DNA of 57,067 nucleotides from a bacterium (GTDB lineage: Bacteria; Patescibacteriota; Patescibacteriia; UBA9934), in NCBI GenBank assembly GCA_043818555.1, contig JBDRFP010000012.1:1-57067 (forward strand). Direction: 5' to 3'. The translations under genes were made by a program, and so were the position numbers. Positions 1-7,872 of this stretch are shown piece by piece. Position 1 is the stretch's first letter. Each line of letters opens with the position of its first letter. The notes beneath the pieces are model-generated. The model was not told the origin of the DNA, did not search any database, and was given only the letters and a program-made list of their open reading frames with translations.

Positions 1-1784
1 CCGGTTGAACCGAGTGTGGCGTCGCCGTTTGTAATGTTAGCGTCTCGAACTGCAGAGTCGAATACAATCACAGCCTGGTCAATTTGACCGTTGTTTCCTG
101 CAGCGTCGCTGAATGTAATAGATGTTAGAGCTGGTTTTGTAAGGTCCCATGAACTGCCACCTGATGGAGCGACTACTGCCGCAGATGGATTTACCTGGTT
201 GGTGCCGTCAGTCACGTCTACGCTTGCGGCCGGAGTGAAGTTGCCGCTTGGCTCGGTCGTGGAGGTGCTATCCATATATCCACCTGCCTGGTCAGCCAGG
301 TCAATTGTAATCGTGGATGTTCCGTTGCCACCGACCGTATTCAGTCCTGCTGTAACCGTAACGTCGTTTGCGGTACCGAAGCTCCCGAATCCACGTACCA
401 AACCTGCAGAGTCTAAATCGCCCTTTGTGGCCGTCGATGCACCATTCGCGACTGTCATGTTTTCTGAGTATGTGAAGCTCAGTCGGTTTCTGTTTGACGC
501 TGAGCTAAGTGCTACTGCAGTGAGGATCGGTGAAGCCCCGTCAGTTTCTGCAATGTCAGCTAGCGCAATCGCTCCGTCTACTGATGTGTCGAGAAGGTTT
601 CCAGCGAGGTCAGTAATTTTTGTCGTTGCCGCAGAGTAATCAAAATCTGACTCTGTTCCAATAGCCGTGTCTACTGCCGCGTCGTCAGCTGTACGGTTAA
701 AGGTTGCAGTTGCGTCGTTTGCCGTTCCGGTGTCGAATGTTACCGTTGTCGTGCCGGCAGTTGACGAAAGCGTAGCGTCTGCTGCCGTAATGTTAGCGTC
801 TCGAACTGAGCTGTCAAATACCACTACTGCGCGATCGATCTTTCCGTTGTTTCCTGCTGCGTCGCTAACTGTGATAGATGTCAGTGCCGGCTTTGTAAGA
901 TCCCATGAACCACCGCCGGATGCTGTTGGGTCTGCGCCGCTGGTGTTTACCTGCAAACCAACCCCGTCAACTATTGACGCCGAAGCCGATTCTGAAAATA
1001 CTCCGCTAGGCTCAGTTGTCGAAGCCGTGTTCATGTAGCCTGCTGCCTGGTCGGCCAGATCAACATATAGAGTAGAAGTCCCGTTTCCACCTACAGTGTT
1101 TAGCCCGGTGTTTACTGTAACATCACCTGTTGTTGCAAAAGTTCCGAATCCATCTACCGTACCAGCTGTGTCCGTGTCTCCCTTTGTGCCAGTTGAAGCT
1201 CCATTTACAATCGTCATGTTTTCCGAATATGTAAAGCTAACCCTATTTCTGTTCGATGCTGAGCTGAGCACTACTGCTGTAATGATTGGCGCCGCTCCGT
1301 CAGTGATGTTTGCTGCGCCAACTGTCCCCAGAGTTCCACTAGCGTTTACAATCGAGGCGTCAGCGTCGTCGTTATCGTATGCAATTGTTGGAGCTGTGCT
1401 GTGGCCGGTTGTATCCGCATTTGCGCCGGTAATAATCAGAGTTACTGTAGCGGTTCCCAGCACACAGCTGTGGCCTGTTGCAGCCAACGAGCCTCCGATG
1501 TCGTTACCAACATAAGTCCAGTCAGTTGGGATTTCAGCATCTGCAACGTCACACGTTGTTAGTGCCTCACCTCCGTTGATGACCACATCTACCTGGTCAA
1601 TAATACCGTCGTTGTCGGTGTCATAATAAGTTTGCGACGTGAAGCCTGTTGGCGCAGCCGCGTACGCTTGCTCGACTTGCATAAGCAAGCTTGCGAGCGA
1701 GACGCTAACCAAGGCCACGATCATGGCAATTGCCATCAACCACGTCCGGTCGCGTCTGAATAAAATCGAATTTGTTCGGGACAT
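1..1784 (-). CDS. Large secreted/surface (S-layer- or adhesin-like) protein with ~252-aa internal repeats; runs off the window
   Basis: Not in the ORF track because there is no stop in the window. Manual translation from ATG 1784 gives MSRTNSILFRRDRTWLMAIAMIVALVSVSLASLLMQVEQAYAAAPTG..., a signal peptide followed by T/S/G/D/A-rich sequence. The SWDLTKPALTSIT block recurs 756 nt apart. Confidence 0.85.
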   Translation of the reverse strand, partial: MSRTNSILFRRDRTWLMAIAMIVALVSVSLASLLMQVEQAYAAAPTGFTSQTYYDTDNDGIIDQVDVVINGGEALTTCDVADAEIPTDWTYVGNDIGGSLAATGHSCVLGTATVTLIITGANADTTGHSTAPTIAYDNDDADASIVNASGTLGTVGAANITDGAAPIITAVVLSSASNRNRVSFTYSENMTIVNGASTGTKGDTDTAGTVDGFGTFATTGDVTVNTGLNTVGGNGTSTLYVDLADQAAGYMNTASTTEPSGVFSESASASIVDGVGLQVNTSGADPTASGGGSWDLTKPALTSITVSDAAGNNGKIDRAVVVFDSSVRDANITAADATLSSTAGTTTVTFDTGTANDATATFNRTADDAAVDTAIGTESDFDYSAATTKITDLAGNLLDTSVDGAIALADIAETDGASPILTAVALSSASNRNRLSFTYSENMTVANGASTATKGDLDSAGLVRGFGSFGTANDVTVTAGLNTVGGNGTSTITIDLADQAGGYMDSTSTTEPSGNFTPAASVDVTDGTNQVNPSAAVVAPSGGSSWDLTKPALTSITFSDAAGNNGQIDQAVIVFDSAVRDANITNGDATLGST

Positions 1785-1958
1785 ATAAAAATTTGATTAT
1801 AATTTTGTTTAAAAAGTTATTAATTTGATTAAATACGCAAAAGGTTCTGAGCGCTGAAAACAGCTCAGACCTTGCGACAACTCAATTATATCACGGTTTT
1901 TTGCATCTTGGGATAAAACAATGGCACTTATCCACACGATTTATTACACTAGCCTTGG

Positions 1959-2597
1959 TCAAAATCGTCCTTCCAGCACATGAGTGATCGACGGAGCTTC
2001 ATTTCCGTCCCGAATTTCGCGCGTAATCACCACTTCCGTAAAGTCAAAAAGATCATCCTGAGCCTGTCCAACCTCAACCTCCCACACCAGTCCGTATAAA
2101 CCATCATCCCGCGCAAACATCTCCCCGGTTGAAAAAAATTTCAACACTCCGGGCTTTACCAACCAGCCTTCGTAATAGTGAGTTCCCAAGTCGATTTGAG
2201 GCACGTTTGCGACCACCACATGCGTAAAAAGCGTGCCCGAAGTACCTCGCCGAGCCATTCCGGAATACCCTGCCTCAGCCGGCACTGACCTAAGTTCGAT
2301 CTCAATAATCGGCAGTGTCTTCTCCTCGATTTCTACATCTTCTACTGTTTCTACGATTTCTACATCCATGATCTCAGGCGTCGCCTCGCTGTCATGGTCA
2401 TCGTTATAGTCATCGTCTCCATCCCCCCTCCCAAACACAACGATCACAGCCAACACGACCACAACAGCTCCAAAAATCCAAAACCACCTCTTCCGACCCT
2501 TCTCGGTCGAACGAGGCCTGTCCGATGTCCAGTCTGACCTATGTTGCACGTATCGATTCATCGATTTGTAAATTTCGTAATTTGTACGTTTGTACAA
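1959..2597 (-). CDS. Single-pass membrane protein, C-terminal domain resembling anti-sigma (RskA C-terminal-like) domains
   Basis: Basic N-terminus, TM helix WFWIFGAVVVVLAVIVVF, acidic linker, YYEGWLV motif. True start may be the downstream MNRY. Confidence 0.55.
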   Translation of the reverse strand: MYKRTNYEIYKSMNRYVQHRSDWTSDRPRSTEKGRKRWFWIFGAVVVVLAVIVVFGRGDGDDDYNDDHDSEATPEIMDVEIVETVEDVEIEEKTLPIIEIELRSVPAEAGYSGMARRGTSGTLFTHVVVANVPQIDLGTHYYEGWLVKPGVLKFFSTGEMFARDDGLYGLVWEVEVGQAQDDLFDFTEVVITREIRDGNEAPSITHVLEGRF

Positions 2598-2615: not shown

Positions 2616-4796
2616 CTACAAGTCTTCAATATTCCTCAAAAACGACCCCGGAGCCTCCTTCTTTACCCGCTCGCCCAAATCATCAAGCACAATCGAGGGC
2701 TCATCATCCCAAAAAGTATCACCACTACTCAATCCAGAACTCGCCGATCCTGCCGATCCCCAGCCAGACCTCGCCGATCCCCAACCCCCTTTTCCTCCCT
2801 TCTCGTCCCTTATCGCCCCATATCCCACCAACCCTTGCCTCAACTGTACCAGCTCGCATTGGCCCTCTGGAATTTCGTCCAAAAATAGCGAAGGTTGCTT
2901 GATTTCCAGCGTATCGTGTCCGGCAGTGATTGGATAAGTTAAGTAGAGCTGGCGGCGAGCGCGAGTGGTTGCAACATAAAATAACCGACGCTCTTCCTCC
3001 AAACCGCCTTTTTCGTCATACGCCCGTCCGTGCGGGAAGTACCCGTCAGCCAAGTGCATTACAAACACATTATCCCACTCAAGTCCCTTGGCCTGATGAA
3101 CGGTCGACAACACCAAACGATCTTCGTCGTCGGCAGCAGTTTCCCGCACAGCTCCATACTCGTTCGTAAGACTCACCGCATCCAAAAACTCGCCCAAATC
3201 CTCAAACTGCTCTGCAAAAACCGCAAACTGTTCCAAGTCCTCCAGTCGCTCGTGATGGTTCGGATGCGTGTGCTCCAAATAAGCCTGGTAATCGTCACTT
3301 GCAGCCAGGGCGCGAATATAATACGACGGCACGCGCCTGTCCTTAAGGATGCATCGCAAAATTCTCATAAACCCATCCCAGCCGCTACGCGCGCCTGCTC
3401 CCATAGACACATCCAGCGCCAGTACATCATCGATATTTTCAATCTCCGAGCACGCTGCGGCGATCTTCACGGCTGTAACAATACCAATCCCGGGATGAAT
3501 TTTCAGCGCCCGCATCCATGCCATAGCGTCGCGAGGATTTTGAATCAGGCGGAGATGCGCCACCGTGTCCTTAACATGCGCGCGCTCAAAAAACTTCAGC
3601 CCTCCGCGGTATTCATATGGGATGTCCCTCTTCATTAGTTCAAACTCAAGCGCCTGCGAATGGAACGAGGCCCTGAAAAGCACAGCGATCTCACTCAGTG
3701 ATTTCCCCGATTCAATCAGAGAAGCAATTTGCTCGGCAATGTACTGTGCCTCCTGAGTTTGGTTAGCTGCCGGCACAAGGCACGGCGCCTCCCCTGGGCG
3801 CACAACAGCGATAAGGTCTTTTTTAAACTGATCCGTATTGTTTGCAATAACAGCATTTGCAACGCCTAAAATTTGCGGCGTTGACCTATAATTTGTTGTG
3901 AGTTTATACATCTTGGTTCCACCAAATCGGCTTGGAAATTCCAAAATATTGCGAACCTCAGCCGCACGGAATGAATATATGCTCTGAGCGTCGTCGCCAA
4001 CTACAAGTAGGTTTTTATGTTTTGACGAAAGTTGGCGCACAATTTCGGCCTGGATTACATTAGTGTCCTGAAACTCGTCAACTAAAACATATTGAAATTG
4101 TCGCGACAAATGATCGCGCACATCCCCGTGGTTTTGCAGCAGGTCGAGCAGGCGGAGCAATAAATCGTCAAAATCCATTGAATTTTGCTGACGTTTTTGG
4201 CCGTGATAGAGCTTTGCAACCTCGCCGATCTCGTCAATAAGCGGCAAAAACTTTGGATGCTTATTTTCGAGCGCGGCTTCAAGCGAACAATTTTTATTTG
4301 ATTGAAACGATATTATGCCGTGCAAAACGCCAGCACTTGGAAACCGTTTGCCCTTGGTGTCGATCTTTAGTTCTTTTACGCACAAGCTAACCAGTTCACG
4401 CGAATCTTCCTGGTCCAAGATCGAGAAGTTGGATTCATAGCCCAACTTGGCCGCATACTTTCTAAGAATCCTGTTCGCGATGCTATGAAAAGTCCCACCC
4501 CAAAGCCCTGCCGGGTACTGGCCAAGTAACATTTCGACCCTGCTGACCATTTCCTTCGCAGCCTTATTTGTAAAAGTGAGCAGGAGAATATTTTGAGGCT
4601 GGACTCCGTTTTCAAGCAGCCGAGCGACGCGATATGTGATTGTACGAGTTTTTCCAGATCCTGCGCCTGCCAAAACCAAACAAGGGCCGTCCCCGTTTTG
4701 AACAACATCGAGCTGGTCAGGATTAAGTTCGGCTTCGTAGTCGATTTTTAGATCGCGACCCTGCCCGGCGCCTTGTAGTATGAATTCCTTTGTCAT
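2616..4796 (-). CDS. UvrD/PcrA-family ATP-dependent DNA helicase
   Basis: LAGAGSGKT Walker A, TFTNKAA, VDEFQDTN, VGDDAQSIYSFR, NYRS, STVHQAKGLEW, EERRLFYVATTRA. Confidence 0.96.
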   Translation of the reverse strand: MTKEFILQGAGQGRDLKIDYEAELNPDQLDVVQNGDGPCLVLAGAGSGKTRTITYRVARLLENGVQPQNILLLTFTNKAAKEMVSRVEMLLGQYPAGLWGGTFHSIANRILRKYAAKLGYESNFSILDQEDSRELVSLCVKELKIDTKGKRFPSAGVLHGIISFQSNKNCSLEAALENKHPKFLPLIDEIGEVAKLYHGQKRQQNSMDFDDLLLRLLDLLQNHGDVRDHLSRQFQYVLVDEFQDTNVIQAEIVRQLSSKHKNLLVVGDDAQSIYSFRAAEVRNILEFPSRFGGTKMYKLTTNYRSTPQILGVANAVIANNTDQFKKDLIAVVRPGEAPCLVPAANQTQEAQYIAEQIASLIESGKSLSEIAVLFRASFHSQALEFELMKRDIPYEYRGGLKFFERAHVKDTVAHLRLIQNPRDAMAWMRALKIHPGIGIVTAVKIAAACSEIENIDDVLALDVSMGAGARSGWDGFMRILRCILKDRRVPSYYIRALAASDDYQAYLEHTHPNHHERLEDLEQFAVFAEQFEDLGEFLDAVSLTNEYGAVRETAADDEDRLVLSTVHQAKGLEWDNVFVMHLADGYFPHGRAYDEKGGLEEERRLFYVATTRARRQLYLTYPITAGHDTLEIKQPSLFLDEIPEGQCELVQLRQGLVGYGAIRDEKGGKGGWGSARSGWGSAGSASSGLSSGDTFWDDEPSIVLDDLGERVKKEAPGSFLRNIEDL

Positions 4797-4912
4797 GGTG
4801 GAGGCATTTTACCATACTTTCGATCCCCCTCCTTTTCAAGGAGGGGCTAGGGGTGGTTACCCGCCTATCGAATCTGCCCCGATCCGTAATCTTGATCCGT
4901 CTCGATCTCCCC

Positions 4913-5104
4913 AAAAGAAAAGACCCCCGCCGACCGAAATCGACGAGGGCTAGGAGGAATACTCAACCATGTCAGACAAGCGATTTCTCGCTAGCAGGAA
5001 TAGGCACCCATCATACCTGCTTGAGGACGCTCAAATGCTGCGTTATCGCGGTTCCCAACAGCCCGCGAATAGCCTGCACTCCACGCTATCCCTTACTCTC
5101 AAGC
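4913..5104 (-). ncRNA. Putative structured ncRNA, cassette 1 of 4
   Basis: TTGACA(5139-5134)-17-CACACT promoter. GCTTGAG/CTCAAGC, GCGT/ACGC and CGCGG/CCGCG stems, AGCGA-GAAA-TCGCT hairpin, GC hairpin plus U-tract terminator. Homologous to cassette 3. Confidence 0.65.
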
Positions 5105-5242
5105 AAAACTAGTGTGCCATATTGGTGGAAATTTGTCAAGGCTCAGCTGTAAAGCTAGCAAAAAAAACAGGGGTTCACAGTTCACCGACTTGCAACTTTG
5201 CACTTGCAACTTGCGACTTGTGCCTTTAAACTTTTGACTTTT

Positions 5243-5418
5243 AAAAAAATGACCCCCGCCGACCGAAATCGACGAGGGCTAGGAGTGCAAATGCTGTCTT
5301 CGCAATGCAAGAACCAAACGGTCGTGATGAACCGCTACCAGAGGCGCACAGATCCTCGCGAAGCGTTTCGGCACATTACGCCTGCCTAAGTTTCCGTACT
5401 GTCCTTTCGCTCCCTAGC
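5243..5418 (-). ncRNA. Putative structured ncRNA, cassette 2 of 4
   Basis: TTGACA(5453-5448)-17-TATATT. The 5' GCTAGGGAG can pair with CTCCTAGC just before the terminator. Terminator identical to cassette 1. Confidence 0.6.
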
Positions 5419-5447
5419 ATTGCCAATATACCAGTTTGTTGATGCTA

Positions 5448-5832
5448 TGTCAAGAAAGTGTTGGTTTCAATGGGGCTAGAGGGGCTAGATCTGTTAGCCC
5501 CGTTAGCTCCTAAGTAAACCACATGCAACTTTCTGACTTTCTTACTAAATAAAAAATGCCCCCGCCGACCGTCAACGGCAGGGGCAAGCAGGGACTGGCG
5601 TACCATGAAGCGCCTGCTTAAGGACACGGCGCACTGCGTTATCGAGCTCGCTTCCTACCTCGACCAGCCTATGCAACCACGCTGTCCCTTACTCTTAAGC
5701 GTTGGCATTATGCCAGATTATTGATGTTTTGTCAAGAAAGTGCTGGTTTCAATGGTTGCAACGGAGCTAGAGGGGCTAGATCTGTTAGCCCCGTTAGCTC
5801 CTAAGTAAACCACATGCAACTTTCTGACTTTC
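5448..5832. repeat. ~95-bp direct duplication (5448-5541 and 5730-5832) upstream of cassettes 2 and 3
   Basis: GCTAGAGGGGCTAGATCTGTTAGCCCCGTTAGCTCCTAAGTAAACCACATGCAACTTT occurs twice, each time abutting a -35 box. Confidence 0.9.
5551..5700 (-). ncRNA. Putative structured ncRNA, cassette 3 of 4
   Basis: TTGACA(5735-5730)-17-CATAAT. GCTTAAG/CTTAAGC is compensatory relative to cassette 1; also GGACA/TGTCC, CGAG/CTCG, AGCAGG/CCTGCT and a related terminator. Confidence 0.65.
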
Positions 5833-6083
5833 CGACTTTCGGCTTTAGGACTTTCCGATTCCTGACTAATATCAACCTGTTGCAGATTGTGGCCGATCGG
5901 TTAAAAAGTGCAACACTAGATAAGCAGTGCTTTCTAACTAACCCTCGCGAAATTTCAAATTTTTTTTTGTTTTGATGTGTACCCAAATTTAGCCGATCGG
6001 TTAAAAACAGGTACACATTTGAGTTGTGTTATGGGATTGGTACCGTAGCGCGCCGTGTTGAATGCTAGTGTTGAATACTAACG

Positions 6084-6325
6084 AAAAGAAAACACCCCCG
6101 CCGATACAAGATCAGCAGGGGTGAGACGAGGTCCCGACCAGAAATTCTCGATAGGGGTCAGGCCGATTTTTTCTCGGACCCTCTTGCCCTTCCCCCAACG
6201 CCACCCACGACTCCAGAGTCACGTGCCTCATGGGTGGAACGCCTACACGTCTCCGTAAGAGTCGTCGAGTTACCTGGAGCAAATAACCCTTCGACCTTAC
6301 GCCTGCCACCTGGTCAGGATTGACC
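6084..6325 (-). ncRNA. Putative structured ncRNA, cassette 4 of 4
   Basis: TTGACA(6359-6354)-17-TATAGT. Closing stem TCCTGACCAG/CTGGTCGGGA around three internal hairpins; related terminator plus U-tract. Confidence 0.6.
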
Positions 6326-6519
6326 GGAATACTATAACATATTTCCGCACTTTTGTCAAGCCCTGAGGGCAAAAAGCGCCAAAAAACAGGCGTTTTGGCC
6401 TGTTTGCAGTCGTTAAAATCGTTAAATCGTTCGCTACGCTCACTCGTTAAAGTCGTTAATTCAATCGGCTTTAACGCTTTTAACAAGGCCGTCAGGCCGA
6501 TTTAACATCTTGAACGATG

Positions 6520-7872
6520 CTAAACCACCAACGGCAAATCGTGAATCGTATTCGGTCTTCCCATTAAAACGTCAGCAATTCGATACGCGCCGTGCGTAGG
6601 AGCCTCAATGAACCCGTTCCACGCCTTGCGCGCCAAAGCGCCGGAGTTAATCCAGTCAAACAGCCACTCGTTCGCATAACGAGGATCGAGCTGGTCGATT
6701 CCACCGCCGACTTGCTCCAACCACTTATGGTTAAAGCCCTCTTGCGACCCTACAGTCGGCGCCATAATAATCGGAATGCCCAAACCCGTGTAGAACGAAA
6801 GCTCGCTCGGTTTTGTCCACAAAATGTCGATTTTACGCATCAGCTTGGTAAACTCATCAAAATACTTTGGCCGGTTTTCCTCAAACATAATGTTCAGGTT
6901 GCCTTTTTTGATTTCGTTCGTGAGCCCTGCTCTGTGCGACTCTTCGATAAAATACTCAGCAACCTCAGGTCGAGTGCCAGCGACCAAATGTAGAATGATC
7001 TTGCCCTGCTTAATTTCGCGCTCCAAGCTTTTCGCAATGACAGCTCCAATTTCGCGCTGAGCTCCGGCGCCTCCAACGACAAACGCCAGATTAATAGGCT
7101 TTGGCTTTGTCGATCTGATAGTTTTGCAATACTCAGGGCCAAGATGATTTGTTAACGCCTGCCCGGTGTGAGCCACAAAAATGCCGTTCGGGTCCAGGTT
7201 GCAAATGCGACGCTGCATGTCGGAAATGGCAACCTTAGCATCAAGCCCGCCCACAGCCTCGGTTGGCAAAGGAAATCCGGTCAGTTCAATGTTTTTCGCC
7301 GACACGCCGTAGAGCTTAAGCCGCTCGACAACTCGGCCGTTCGGTGCAAAATATCTGATCCTTGATTTGCGCGGCTCTAGCGGAACCCAAGCTCGGCTCA
7401 TGTCAGCGTCGGTCACAAGCGAAAAAATCTCACCTGGGTAGCCAAACTCCTCTGCAGCAAACGCAGGCGACATAAAGGTGCACACAAGCGGCTTAGGATC
7501 CTTCGCAAGGCTTTCAATTAAGTGCCGCATGTGATTACGGTAGCGAATCAAAAAGTACATTTCGCGGACCTGAAGACTTGGGGCTGATAAATCGCGGCGA
7601 GGGTAAAAATCAGGAATGCGCTGCAGTTCATCCATTAACCCAAAAACCGCGCGCCCAAGCAGGGGTACTTTTTTAAATCGAGAAATCTTCTCGTAAATTT
7701 TACGCCCGCCTTCCCACAGCCTGCGGTCACTGTCAGGGATGCCGTCGTAGTCGTTGGCGATTATGACTTTGCCGCCGGCGAACTTGCGAAGAACGTGCGC
7801 AGGGCGTTCGTGCCCATAGCCCATATCCACCGCTACGACATGGGCGATATTTTTATATCCTCCTTTAGACAT
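6520..7872 (-). CDS. Glycosyltransferase-like protein (GT-B, MGDG synthase/MurG-like)
   Basis: N-terminal VDMGYGH, VTDAD, TGFPL, GGAGAQ, DILWTKPSEL, GSQE motifs. Confidence 0.65.
   Translation of the reverse strand: MSKGGYKNIAHVVAVDMGYGHERPAHVLRKFAGGKVIIANDYDGIPDSDRRLWEGGRKIYEKISRFKKVPLLGRAVFGLMDELQRIPDFYPRRDLSAPSLQVREMYFLIRYRNHMRHLIESLAKDPKPLVCTFMSPAFAAEEFGYPGEIFSLVTDADMSRAWVPLEPRKSRIRYFAPNGRVVERLKLYGVSAKNIELTGFPLPTEAVGGLDAKVAISDMQRRICNLDPNGIFVAHTGQALTNHLGPEYCKTIRSTKPKPINLAFVVGGAGAQREIGAVIAKSLEREIKQGKIILHLVAGTRPEVAEYFIEESHRAGLTNEIKKGNLNIMFEENRPKYFDEFTKLMRKIDILWTKPSELSFYTGLGIPIIMAPTVGSQEGFNHKWLEQVGGGIDQLDPRYANEWLFDWINSGALARKAWNGFIEAPTHGAYRIADVLMGRPNTIHDLPLVV

Follow-up and report, generated by a model that had tools for sequence, protein, structure and literature searches.

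We describe here an array of four probable small RNA genes on contig JBDRFP010000012.1 of a patescibacterial genome (GCA_043818555.1; here G000, 1,005,933 bases in 37 contigs, 96.6% complete). The whole contig, C12 of that genome, was analyzed as one stretch of 57,067 nucleotides, referred to below as the window. A gap of 1.7 kb without a credible open reading frame (ORF) separates uvrD from a gene encoding a DUF6938 protein. Within this gap, at positions 4913-6360, four units composed of promoter, body and terminator were confirmed, all of them on the minus strand. On balance, we consider it somewhat probable that they are four separate small non-coding RNA genes of approximately 150-240 nt, which form a species-specific cluster of sibling small RNAs (sRNAs) derived from local duplication and module exchange.

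Unit 1 (4913-5139) has its promoter at 5139-5111, a predicted start at 5104, a body of about 187 nt and a terminator at 4950-4923. Unit 2 (5243-5453) is arranged in the same manner, with a promoter at 5453-5425, a predicted start at 5418, a body of about 172 nt and a terminator at 5279-5252. The body of unit 3 (5547-5735) is shorter, about 150 nt, between a promoter at 5735-5707 with a predicted start at 5700 and a terminator at 5586-5557. Unit 4 (6085-6359) is predicted to start at about 6325 after a promoter at 6359-6331 and has a body of about 240 nt; its terminator stem at 6123-6093 is followed by a T-run. The spacing from unit to unit is 282-624 nt.

A consensus scan for promoters and terminators covered positions 4500-6800 and was compared with shuffled sequences. 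Nine promoter-like sites were detected, against 1.7 ± 1.3 in the shuffles. The promoters of units 2, 3 and 4 reached a consensus score of 11/12; in each, the spacer measures 17 bp and the -10 box is preceded by TG. That of unit 1 was missed by the scan, its weak, TG-extended -10 hexamer CACACT agreeing with the consensus at three of six positions, and was caught at 5139-5111 by a strict regular expression (TTGACA, N14, TG, N, NANNNT). An earlier note on this DNA had described TTGACA, a 17-bp spacer and a TG-extended -10 box for every unit, and this description holds for all four, the -10 hexamer of unit 1 being weak. The strict expression matched 93 sites on both strands of the whole genome. 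Four of these 93 sites are clustered on one strand of the array within 1.25 kb, where about 0.06 would be expected; this is a genuine cluster. The matched sites also include the promoter of the RNase P RNA and those of many mRNAs, and the pattern therefore represents the standard strong promoter of this organism.

The 5' ends of units 1-3 are related, as had been proposed. A degenerate pattern of 33-35 nt matched exactly these three places in the window and was found in none of 100 shuffles. In units 1-3 alike, a conserved GCU begins 7 nt past the -10 box, which coincides with the starts expected earlier (5104, 5418 and 5700). In units 1 and 3, the predicted +1 is also the first base of helix P1 of the fold described below.

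Among the sequences upstream of the promoters, an 85-nt minus-strand repeat is present at 5462-5546 just upstream of the unit 2 promoter and, 94% identical, at 5753-5837 just upstream of the unit 3 promoter. It contains a nested palindrome that occurs at these two places only in the whole genome and may be an operator for a regulator of units 2 and 3. Tandem repeats of 8-14 nt precede the promoters of unit 3 (GAAAGTC type, 5812-5860), unit 1 (AAGTTGCAAGT type, 5188-5213) and unit 4 (TTAACGA type, 6405-6460).

At the other end of the units, ten terminator-like sites were detected in the scanned region, against 2.7 ± 2.1 in shuffles. The four minus-strand terminators are hairpins of 11-13 pairs followed by T-runs. 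Their relatedness, another claim of the earlier note, was borne out, since in all four units the strong final hairpin has TCGGCGGGGG as its 3' arm, followed by a T-run, and units 1 and 2 show 95% identity over their last 43 nt. In the 1.0-Mb genome, TCGGCGGGGG with a T-run occurs at four sites, all of which are the array terminators. The looser combination of GCGGGGG and TTTT occurs at 10 sites, thus representing a general terminator style in common with mRNA terminators.

Comparison of the units showed that the array is a mosaic of exchanged modules and not a set of four simple copies. The core common to units 1 and 3 spans about 120 nt, with 80% column identity. Units 2 and 3 share a 95-nt stretch comprising the 5' end, the promoter and upstream sequence (75% identity), and the motif previously noticed in units 2 and 4 is a 14-mer with 93% identity. 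Local-alignment z values against shuffles were 15.3 for units 1 and 3, 11.6 for units 1 and 2, 6.3 for units 2 and 3, and 3.7 for units 1 and 4. Unit 2 is itself a mosaic: its 5' 35 nt and upstream sequence resemble unit 3, its 3' end resembles unit 1, and its middle is unique. A model built from units 1 and 3 (R1) scored these two with 133 and 127 bits and found only them in the genome; unit 2 received 4.5 bits and was rejected as a structural homolog of the pair. What unit 4 has in common with the others is confined to the terminator arm and a 14-mer. Of the duplicated and diversifying family that had been postulated, the kinship of units 1-3 therefore stands, whereas the relationship is mosaic and unit 4 is linked by these two short elements. 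The modules that appear to have been exchanged are the upstream region together with promoter and 5' end, the body, and the terminator.

Such recently exchanged modules, with nearly identical 3' ends in units 1 and 2, would also be expected if the units were young duplicates of a promoter/terminator cassette that are perhaps transcribed and whose RNAs have no selected function, i.e., transient proto-genes or junk in one lineage. We regard this explanation as unlikely, though it deserves serious consideration. A possible sign of copy-number variation could be read in the same direction. Metagenome contigs from four DNA runs were short, of low depth and identical to parts of the window, apart from foreign matches to a 40-nt element. 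One of them, at about 2x in run X1, joins 5765 back to 5475, so that unit 3 is followed by the unit 3 promoter again. This join may reflect copy-number variation, a 291-bp circle, or equally an assembly-graph artefact across the 85-nt repeat.

Two further resemblances were examined and rejected. Unit 4 is not considered a decayed 5' end of uvrD, although a 12-mer and an NPDQ peptide are shared, for the BLASTP match had an E value of 0.088 with 8/25 residues and the flanking DNA is unlike. An S17 gene with two motifs similar to the core of units 1 and 3 contains them in coding sequence, in sense and in permuted order, and the similarity was judged to be chance. The 12-mer itself, AATCCTGACCAG, is located at the 5' end of unit 4 (6310-6321) and recurs in the same sense in uvrD (4713-4724, approximately codons 24-28). 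The 3' arm of the closing stem of unit 4 could pair with the AATCCTGACCAG part of the uvrD mRNA, possibly by chance.

The shared core of units 1 and 3 could be drawn by hand as a 7-bp helix P1 beginning at the predicted +1, a 7-nt bulge, a long irregular hairpin and a second small hairpin. Each of the 28 pairs forms in unit 1 as well as in unit 3; five pairs have changed on both sides and six on one side, and none is broken. An independent RNAalifold run gave nearly the same helices (28 pairs, five doubly compensated, none broken). In controls in which the 3' partners were slid by 1-3 columns, pairing was 27-47% and no double changes were observed. The parts conserved between the two units are the bulge and the internal loops, while the helices vary with compensation. 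We take the compensatory changes as good evidence for selection on RNA pairing, but between two paralogs in one genome. That all 11 changed pairs still pair, five of them after changes on both sides, is unexpected under neutral drift and argues against duplicates without function. Likewise, 1.7 kb of junk behind four near-consensus promoters would seem unusual in a 1.0-Mb genome. The fold of unit 4 has a predicted energy of -107 kcal/mol (z -4.0), and none of 200 shuffles was as stable. For units 1, 2 and 3 with their terminators, z values of -1.25, -1.56 and -1.91 were obtained.

Three hairpins with a common loop that contains AACCGATCGG and with different, compensating stems were observed at approximately 5870-5916 and 5960-6016 of the window and at approximately 940-1000 of contig C31 of the same genome. 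The two hairpins of the window lie in the spacer between units 4 and 3 (5736-6084, minus strand), in which no promoter-like site was detected, and they have neither a promoter nor a T-run.

If the units are sibling sRNAs, a sigma-70-type promoter close to the consensus would drive each of them, and the transcripts would begin with the conserved G of GCU. In units 1 and 3, the 5' end would close a long hairpin formed by the first 87 nt, in which purine-rich bulges and internal loops are conserved; one or two small hairpins would come next, and transcription would end at the strong intrinsic terminator. The RNAs would then act in trans. Our best guess for the mode is chaperone-free base pairing with mRNAs. 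The anti-Shine-Dalgarno (anti-SD) seed may be provided by a C/U-rich linker that precedes the terminator (UUCCUCCUAGC in unit 1 and CUCCUAGC in unit 2), and the conserved core may be a domain that confers stability or binds a partner. The linker of units 1 and 2 contains CCUCCUAG or CUCCUAG, complementary to the extended SD CTAGGAGG. Among the start regions called on the basis of an SD-like motif, 608 in number, three contain the latter, and the start regions of three genes carry GCTAGGAGG. It is with modest confidence that we propose sibling sRNAs acting in trans, likeliest by base pairing.

Searches in relatives and other collections gave no homolog of the array. When unit 1 was compared by BLAST with 60 relatives, the best match outside G000 was a terminator (E 1e-4). 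Units 2 and 4, together with the RNA of a cassette on contig C26 that is described below, gave matches of at most 31 nt in 67 genomes of the family. Model R1, searched against the 67 family genomes and 38 relatives (six other families included), returned a single weak match with E 0.26 in G016, which reads as repetitive coding sequence without promoter or terminator and was rejected. No homolog was found with R1 in 31 metagenome loci and 13 other loci, two degenerate patterns had no match in 185,579 species genomes and viral contigs, and blastn of the whole gap had no match in phage records.

The corresponding gap is short in relatives. Orthologs of UvrD were detected in 29 of the 30 other genomes searched, and the upstream sequence of 12 was read. 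In G010, G005 and G012 an ortholog of the DUF6938 gene lies directly upstream of uvrD, with gaps of about 0.02-0.4 kb. The 31 metagenome loci encode a DUF6938 relative with 43-58% identity, and 23 of them include the 3' end of the gene. In these 23 loci the distance to the next ORF of at least 150 aa ranged from -29 to 764 nt, and the strict promoter was present in none. Several of the six loci with gaps above 300 nt have smaller ORFs, and no array-like promoter-terminator cassette was seen in these six. The short gaps between DUF6938 gene and uvrD and the lack of homologs suggest that the array is an insertion or expansion specific to this lineage. A recent local origin is further indicated by the mosaic modules and by the terminator arm being confined to the array. 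Occurrence in one genome only, without a real match in the family genomes, the metagenome loci or the pattern scans of genomes and viral contigs, is likewise in agreement with young duplicates that have no selected function.

Several results weigh against a cluster of functional sibling sRNAs. Independent transcription is inferred from sequence signals only. When the terminators are left off, the bodies of units 1-3 do not exceed shuffles in stability (z -0.03, +0.27 and +0.15), which also fits the young duplicates. What upholds the earlier designation of the RNAs as structured is the compensation seen between units 1 and 3, together with the unit 4 fold, and not the stability of these three bodies. 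The shuffle control of core pairing is weak, with 16 of 500 shuffles reaching the observed values, and the covariation rests on two paralogs because no other genome gave a homolog. No copy was detected in G001, a member of the same genus whose UvrD is 78% identical and whose uvrD contig ends 243 nt upstream of the gene. As for base pairing, duplexes of the linkers with start regions had -13.9 kcal/mol, a slight gain at most over the -12.9 ± 0.6 kcal/mol of shuffled linkers (about 1.8 standard deviations), the anti-SD linker is missing from units 3 and 4, and genome-wide extended complementarity was nothing beyond chance (best E 0.027). Finally, neither Hfq nor ProQ was found in the genome. Since CsrA (PF02599) was not found either in the 96.6%-complete genome, any pairing would need to proceed unaided by the known chaperones.

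The matches of G001 were limited to the promoter of unit 4 (87% over 39 nt, followed by a different leader) and a 21-nt repeat at the contig end. On its contig C14 (L109, approximately 1500-1900, reverse strand), the promoter similar to that of unit 4 leads into a long leader of ACGAAC-type repeats ending in ACAGGAGAGAGCC. A similar motif, GGGGAGAGAG, follows two promoters of G000, at C31 34523 and C19 42345, both on the minus strand.

The gap does not appear to encode proteins. As stated previously, no ORF is conserved among the units: read from the GTG, the frame extends over 13 codons in unit 1 and three in unit 3. In unit 2 such a frame is absent. None of four gap ORFs tested had a Pfam match, and their translations are implausible as protein. 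In G005, the slot between the DUF6938 gene and uvrD reads as a single cassette: besides a promoter, it comprises an ORF of 59 codons, which has an SD and a hydrophobic stretch, and a terminator whose 3' arm is similar to that of the array. This could mean that the units are decayed remnants of small protein-coding cassettes. This origin is extremely improbable in our view, as the paralogs have no conserved SD-led ORF, Pfam matches are lacking, and the substitutions follow base pairing and not codons. Moreover, the whole 1.7-kb region is similar to G005 only in the widespread 40-nt element.

The array also did not correspond to a known RNA family, and the earlier description of the family as unrecognized was supported. 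A search of the whole window with Rfam 15 at gathering thresholds identified four tRNAs only. Within 4700-6600, and at E values up to 10, terminator-like or chance matches were obtained, the best with 21.9 bits against a threshold of 56.4. The array was rejected as SRP RNA, RNase P RNA, tmRNA or 6S RNA, given that no such match was found in it and that the genes for RNase P RNA and tmRNA lie on other contigs of the genome. The models for the small SRP RNA (RF00169) and 6S RNA (RF00013) found no match in the genome at its 96.6% completeness, where those for RNase P RNA and tmRNA find their genes. For 6S RNA in particular, the array had no RF00013 match at E up to 10, and its folds are branched or a 5'-domain hairpin, without a rod with a central bubble. 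A riboswitch was considered unlikely since no homologs were found, the terminators are exchanged between units and the next downstream element is another promoter. There are only two or three GGA motifs per unit, which together with the missing CsrA led to rejection of a CsrB/RsmZ-type sponge. A bacterial Y RNA was discarded because its Ro/Rsr partner with the TROVE domain (PF05731) was not found in the genome. Altogether, with none of CsrA, Hfq, ProQ and Ro found, sponges of the best-known types become less likely. A CRISPR or TIGR guide array was dismissed in view of the separate promoter and terminator of each unit, the spacing of the units and the neighboring genes, which by Pfam encode UvrD, DUF6938 and an Mrr-like protein.

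The conservation of bulge and internal loops between units 1 and 3, with helices that vary under compensation, is the pattern of an aptamer or protein site, and the P1 domain closed by the 5' end resembles aptamer architecture. The core might thus bind a protein or a small molecule, with the RNAs being decoys, sponges, part of a ribonucleoprotein or free-standing riboswitch-like sRNAs. We think that this is quite unlikely. No Rfam aptamer matched even at E up to 10, and other taxa yielded no homolog, although a wide distribution is usual for ligand aptamers. Unit 1 carries the terminator of unit 2, so that no expression platform is coupled to the core, and the element that follows is a promoter. 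The absence of the four proteins named above from the search results speaks against this possibility as well, as does the finding that no repeated loop motif was seen on reading the predicted folds of the four units.

Returning to the sibling sRNAs, the array seems to consist of homologous copies, each with its own promoter and terminator, and its closest known kind is probably a tandem sibling sRNA pair or cluster such as NmsRA/NmsRB. These two sRNAs of Neisseria meningitidis are tandem siblings with about 70% identity, for which anti-SD pairing was proposed (PMC5362039). Like the units of the array, NmsRA/B are homologous small RNAs that follow one another head-to-tail within a single intergenic region; the identity of units 1 and 3 in the core is about 80%. 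The array has no sequence or Rfam relationship to NmsRA/B, and no Hfq was found in the genome; the units are longer (150-240 nt) and mosaic, the body of unit 4 is unrelated, and the array is present in one genome only. The free-standing riboswitch sRNAs SreA/SreB and Rli55/EutX share with the units a promoter, a P1-closed domain, a terminator and the lack of a regulated ORF directly downstream. They differ in that the array has no known aptamer match, its terminator is uncoupled from the core and its modules are swapped. Another example of tandem sibling sRNAs is the LhrC family of Listeria. Similar to 6S RNA, the units look like abundant small RNA genes with consensus promoter and intrinsic terminator, unlike it in the fold and in the RF00013 result given above. 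The array would represent a new RNA family of a familiar kind.

Almost nothing is known about regulatory RNAs of ultra-small bacteria (about 1 Mb) without Hfq, ProQ and CsrA. In the accessible parts of the literature on non-coding and small RNAs of this bacterial group, nothing on such RNAs was present besides the unrelated TIGR-Tas (PMC12045711). The array, with four near-consensus promoters and compensatory changes between paralogs, offers a concrete and cheaply testable entry point, and it shows that such genomes can gain RNA genes fast when modules are duplicated locally and exchanged. As the family was found in a single genome, the wider weight of the array is limited.

The genome of G000 contains other promoter-to-terminator cassettes without an SD-led ORF. 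One of them, an orphan of about 220 nt on contig C26 (11759-11981, minus strand; L102 2260-2482), resembles the 3' half of unit 1 in its terminator and in short co-linear motifs (z about 5); it had no Rfam match and no homolog in the 67 family genomes. In G023 and G011, which belong to another genus, two tandem promoter-RNA-terminator cassettes are located upstream of queA (L009 of G023, 1-700; L117 of G011, 1215-2075, minus strand). The first has about 440 nt and is 84% conserved between the G023 and G011 species, and neither had an Rfam match. The array units displayed no similarity to the tandem RNAs found in genus g11 (z ≤2.5). In G002, a cassette rich in GC and about 480 nt long is located some 550 nt before uvrD (L039); it has a terminator and a promoter-like site and, again, no Rfam match.

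A bolder and very unlikely proposal would see the array as an RNA factory that evolves fast and shuffles its modules, in an ultra-small bacterium that probably depends on a host, and its products as abundant structured RNAs of a new class with a conserved, loop-rich core for a specific partner. If this were true, the partner could be a protein of the cell, its host or a phage, and the RNAs would then be conflict decoys, which would explain their strain specificity. The cassettes before queA in G023 and G011, before uvrD in G002 and on C26 of G000 would then belong to the same phenomenon.

Downstream of the array, uvrD (2616-4796, minus strand) has its own promoter-like site at 4839-4811, and its identity agrees with the earlier assignment (Pfam UvrD-helicase, E 9e-81). 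The gene upstream of the array (6520-7872, minus strand) had been labeled a glycosyltransferase; this was not confirmed, DUF6938 being its sole Pfam match (E 3e-14). An element of about 45 nt, TAACCACCCC..CCCCTCCTT.AAAAGGAGGGG, is located just upstream of uvrD at 4827-4870 and has a -35-like TTGAAA in its loop. Eight close copies of the TAACCACCCC element were detected in the genome, in addition to one looser hairpin on contig C25. Besides the window, the element occurs on contigs C2 (two copies), C4, C14, C16, C19 and C34 of G000, and it is also present in the relatives G005 and G023 and on many foreign metagenome contigs.

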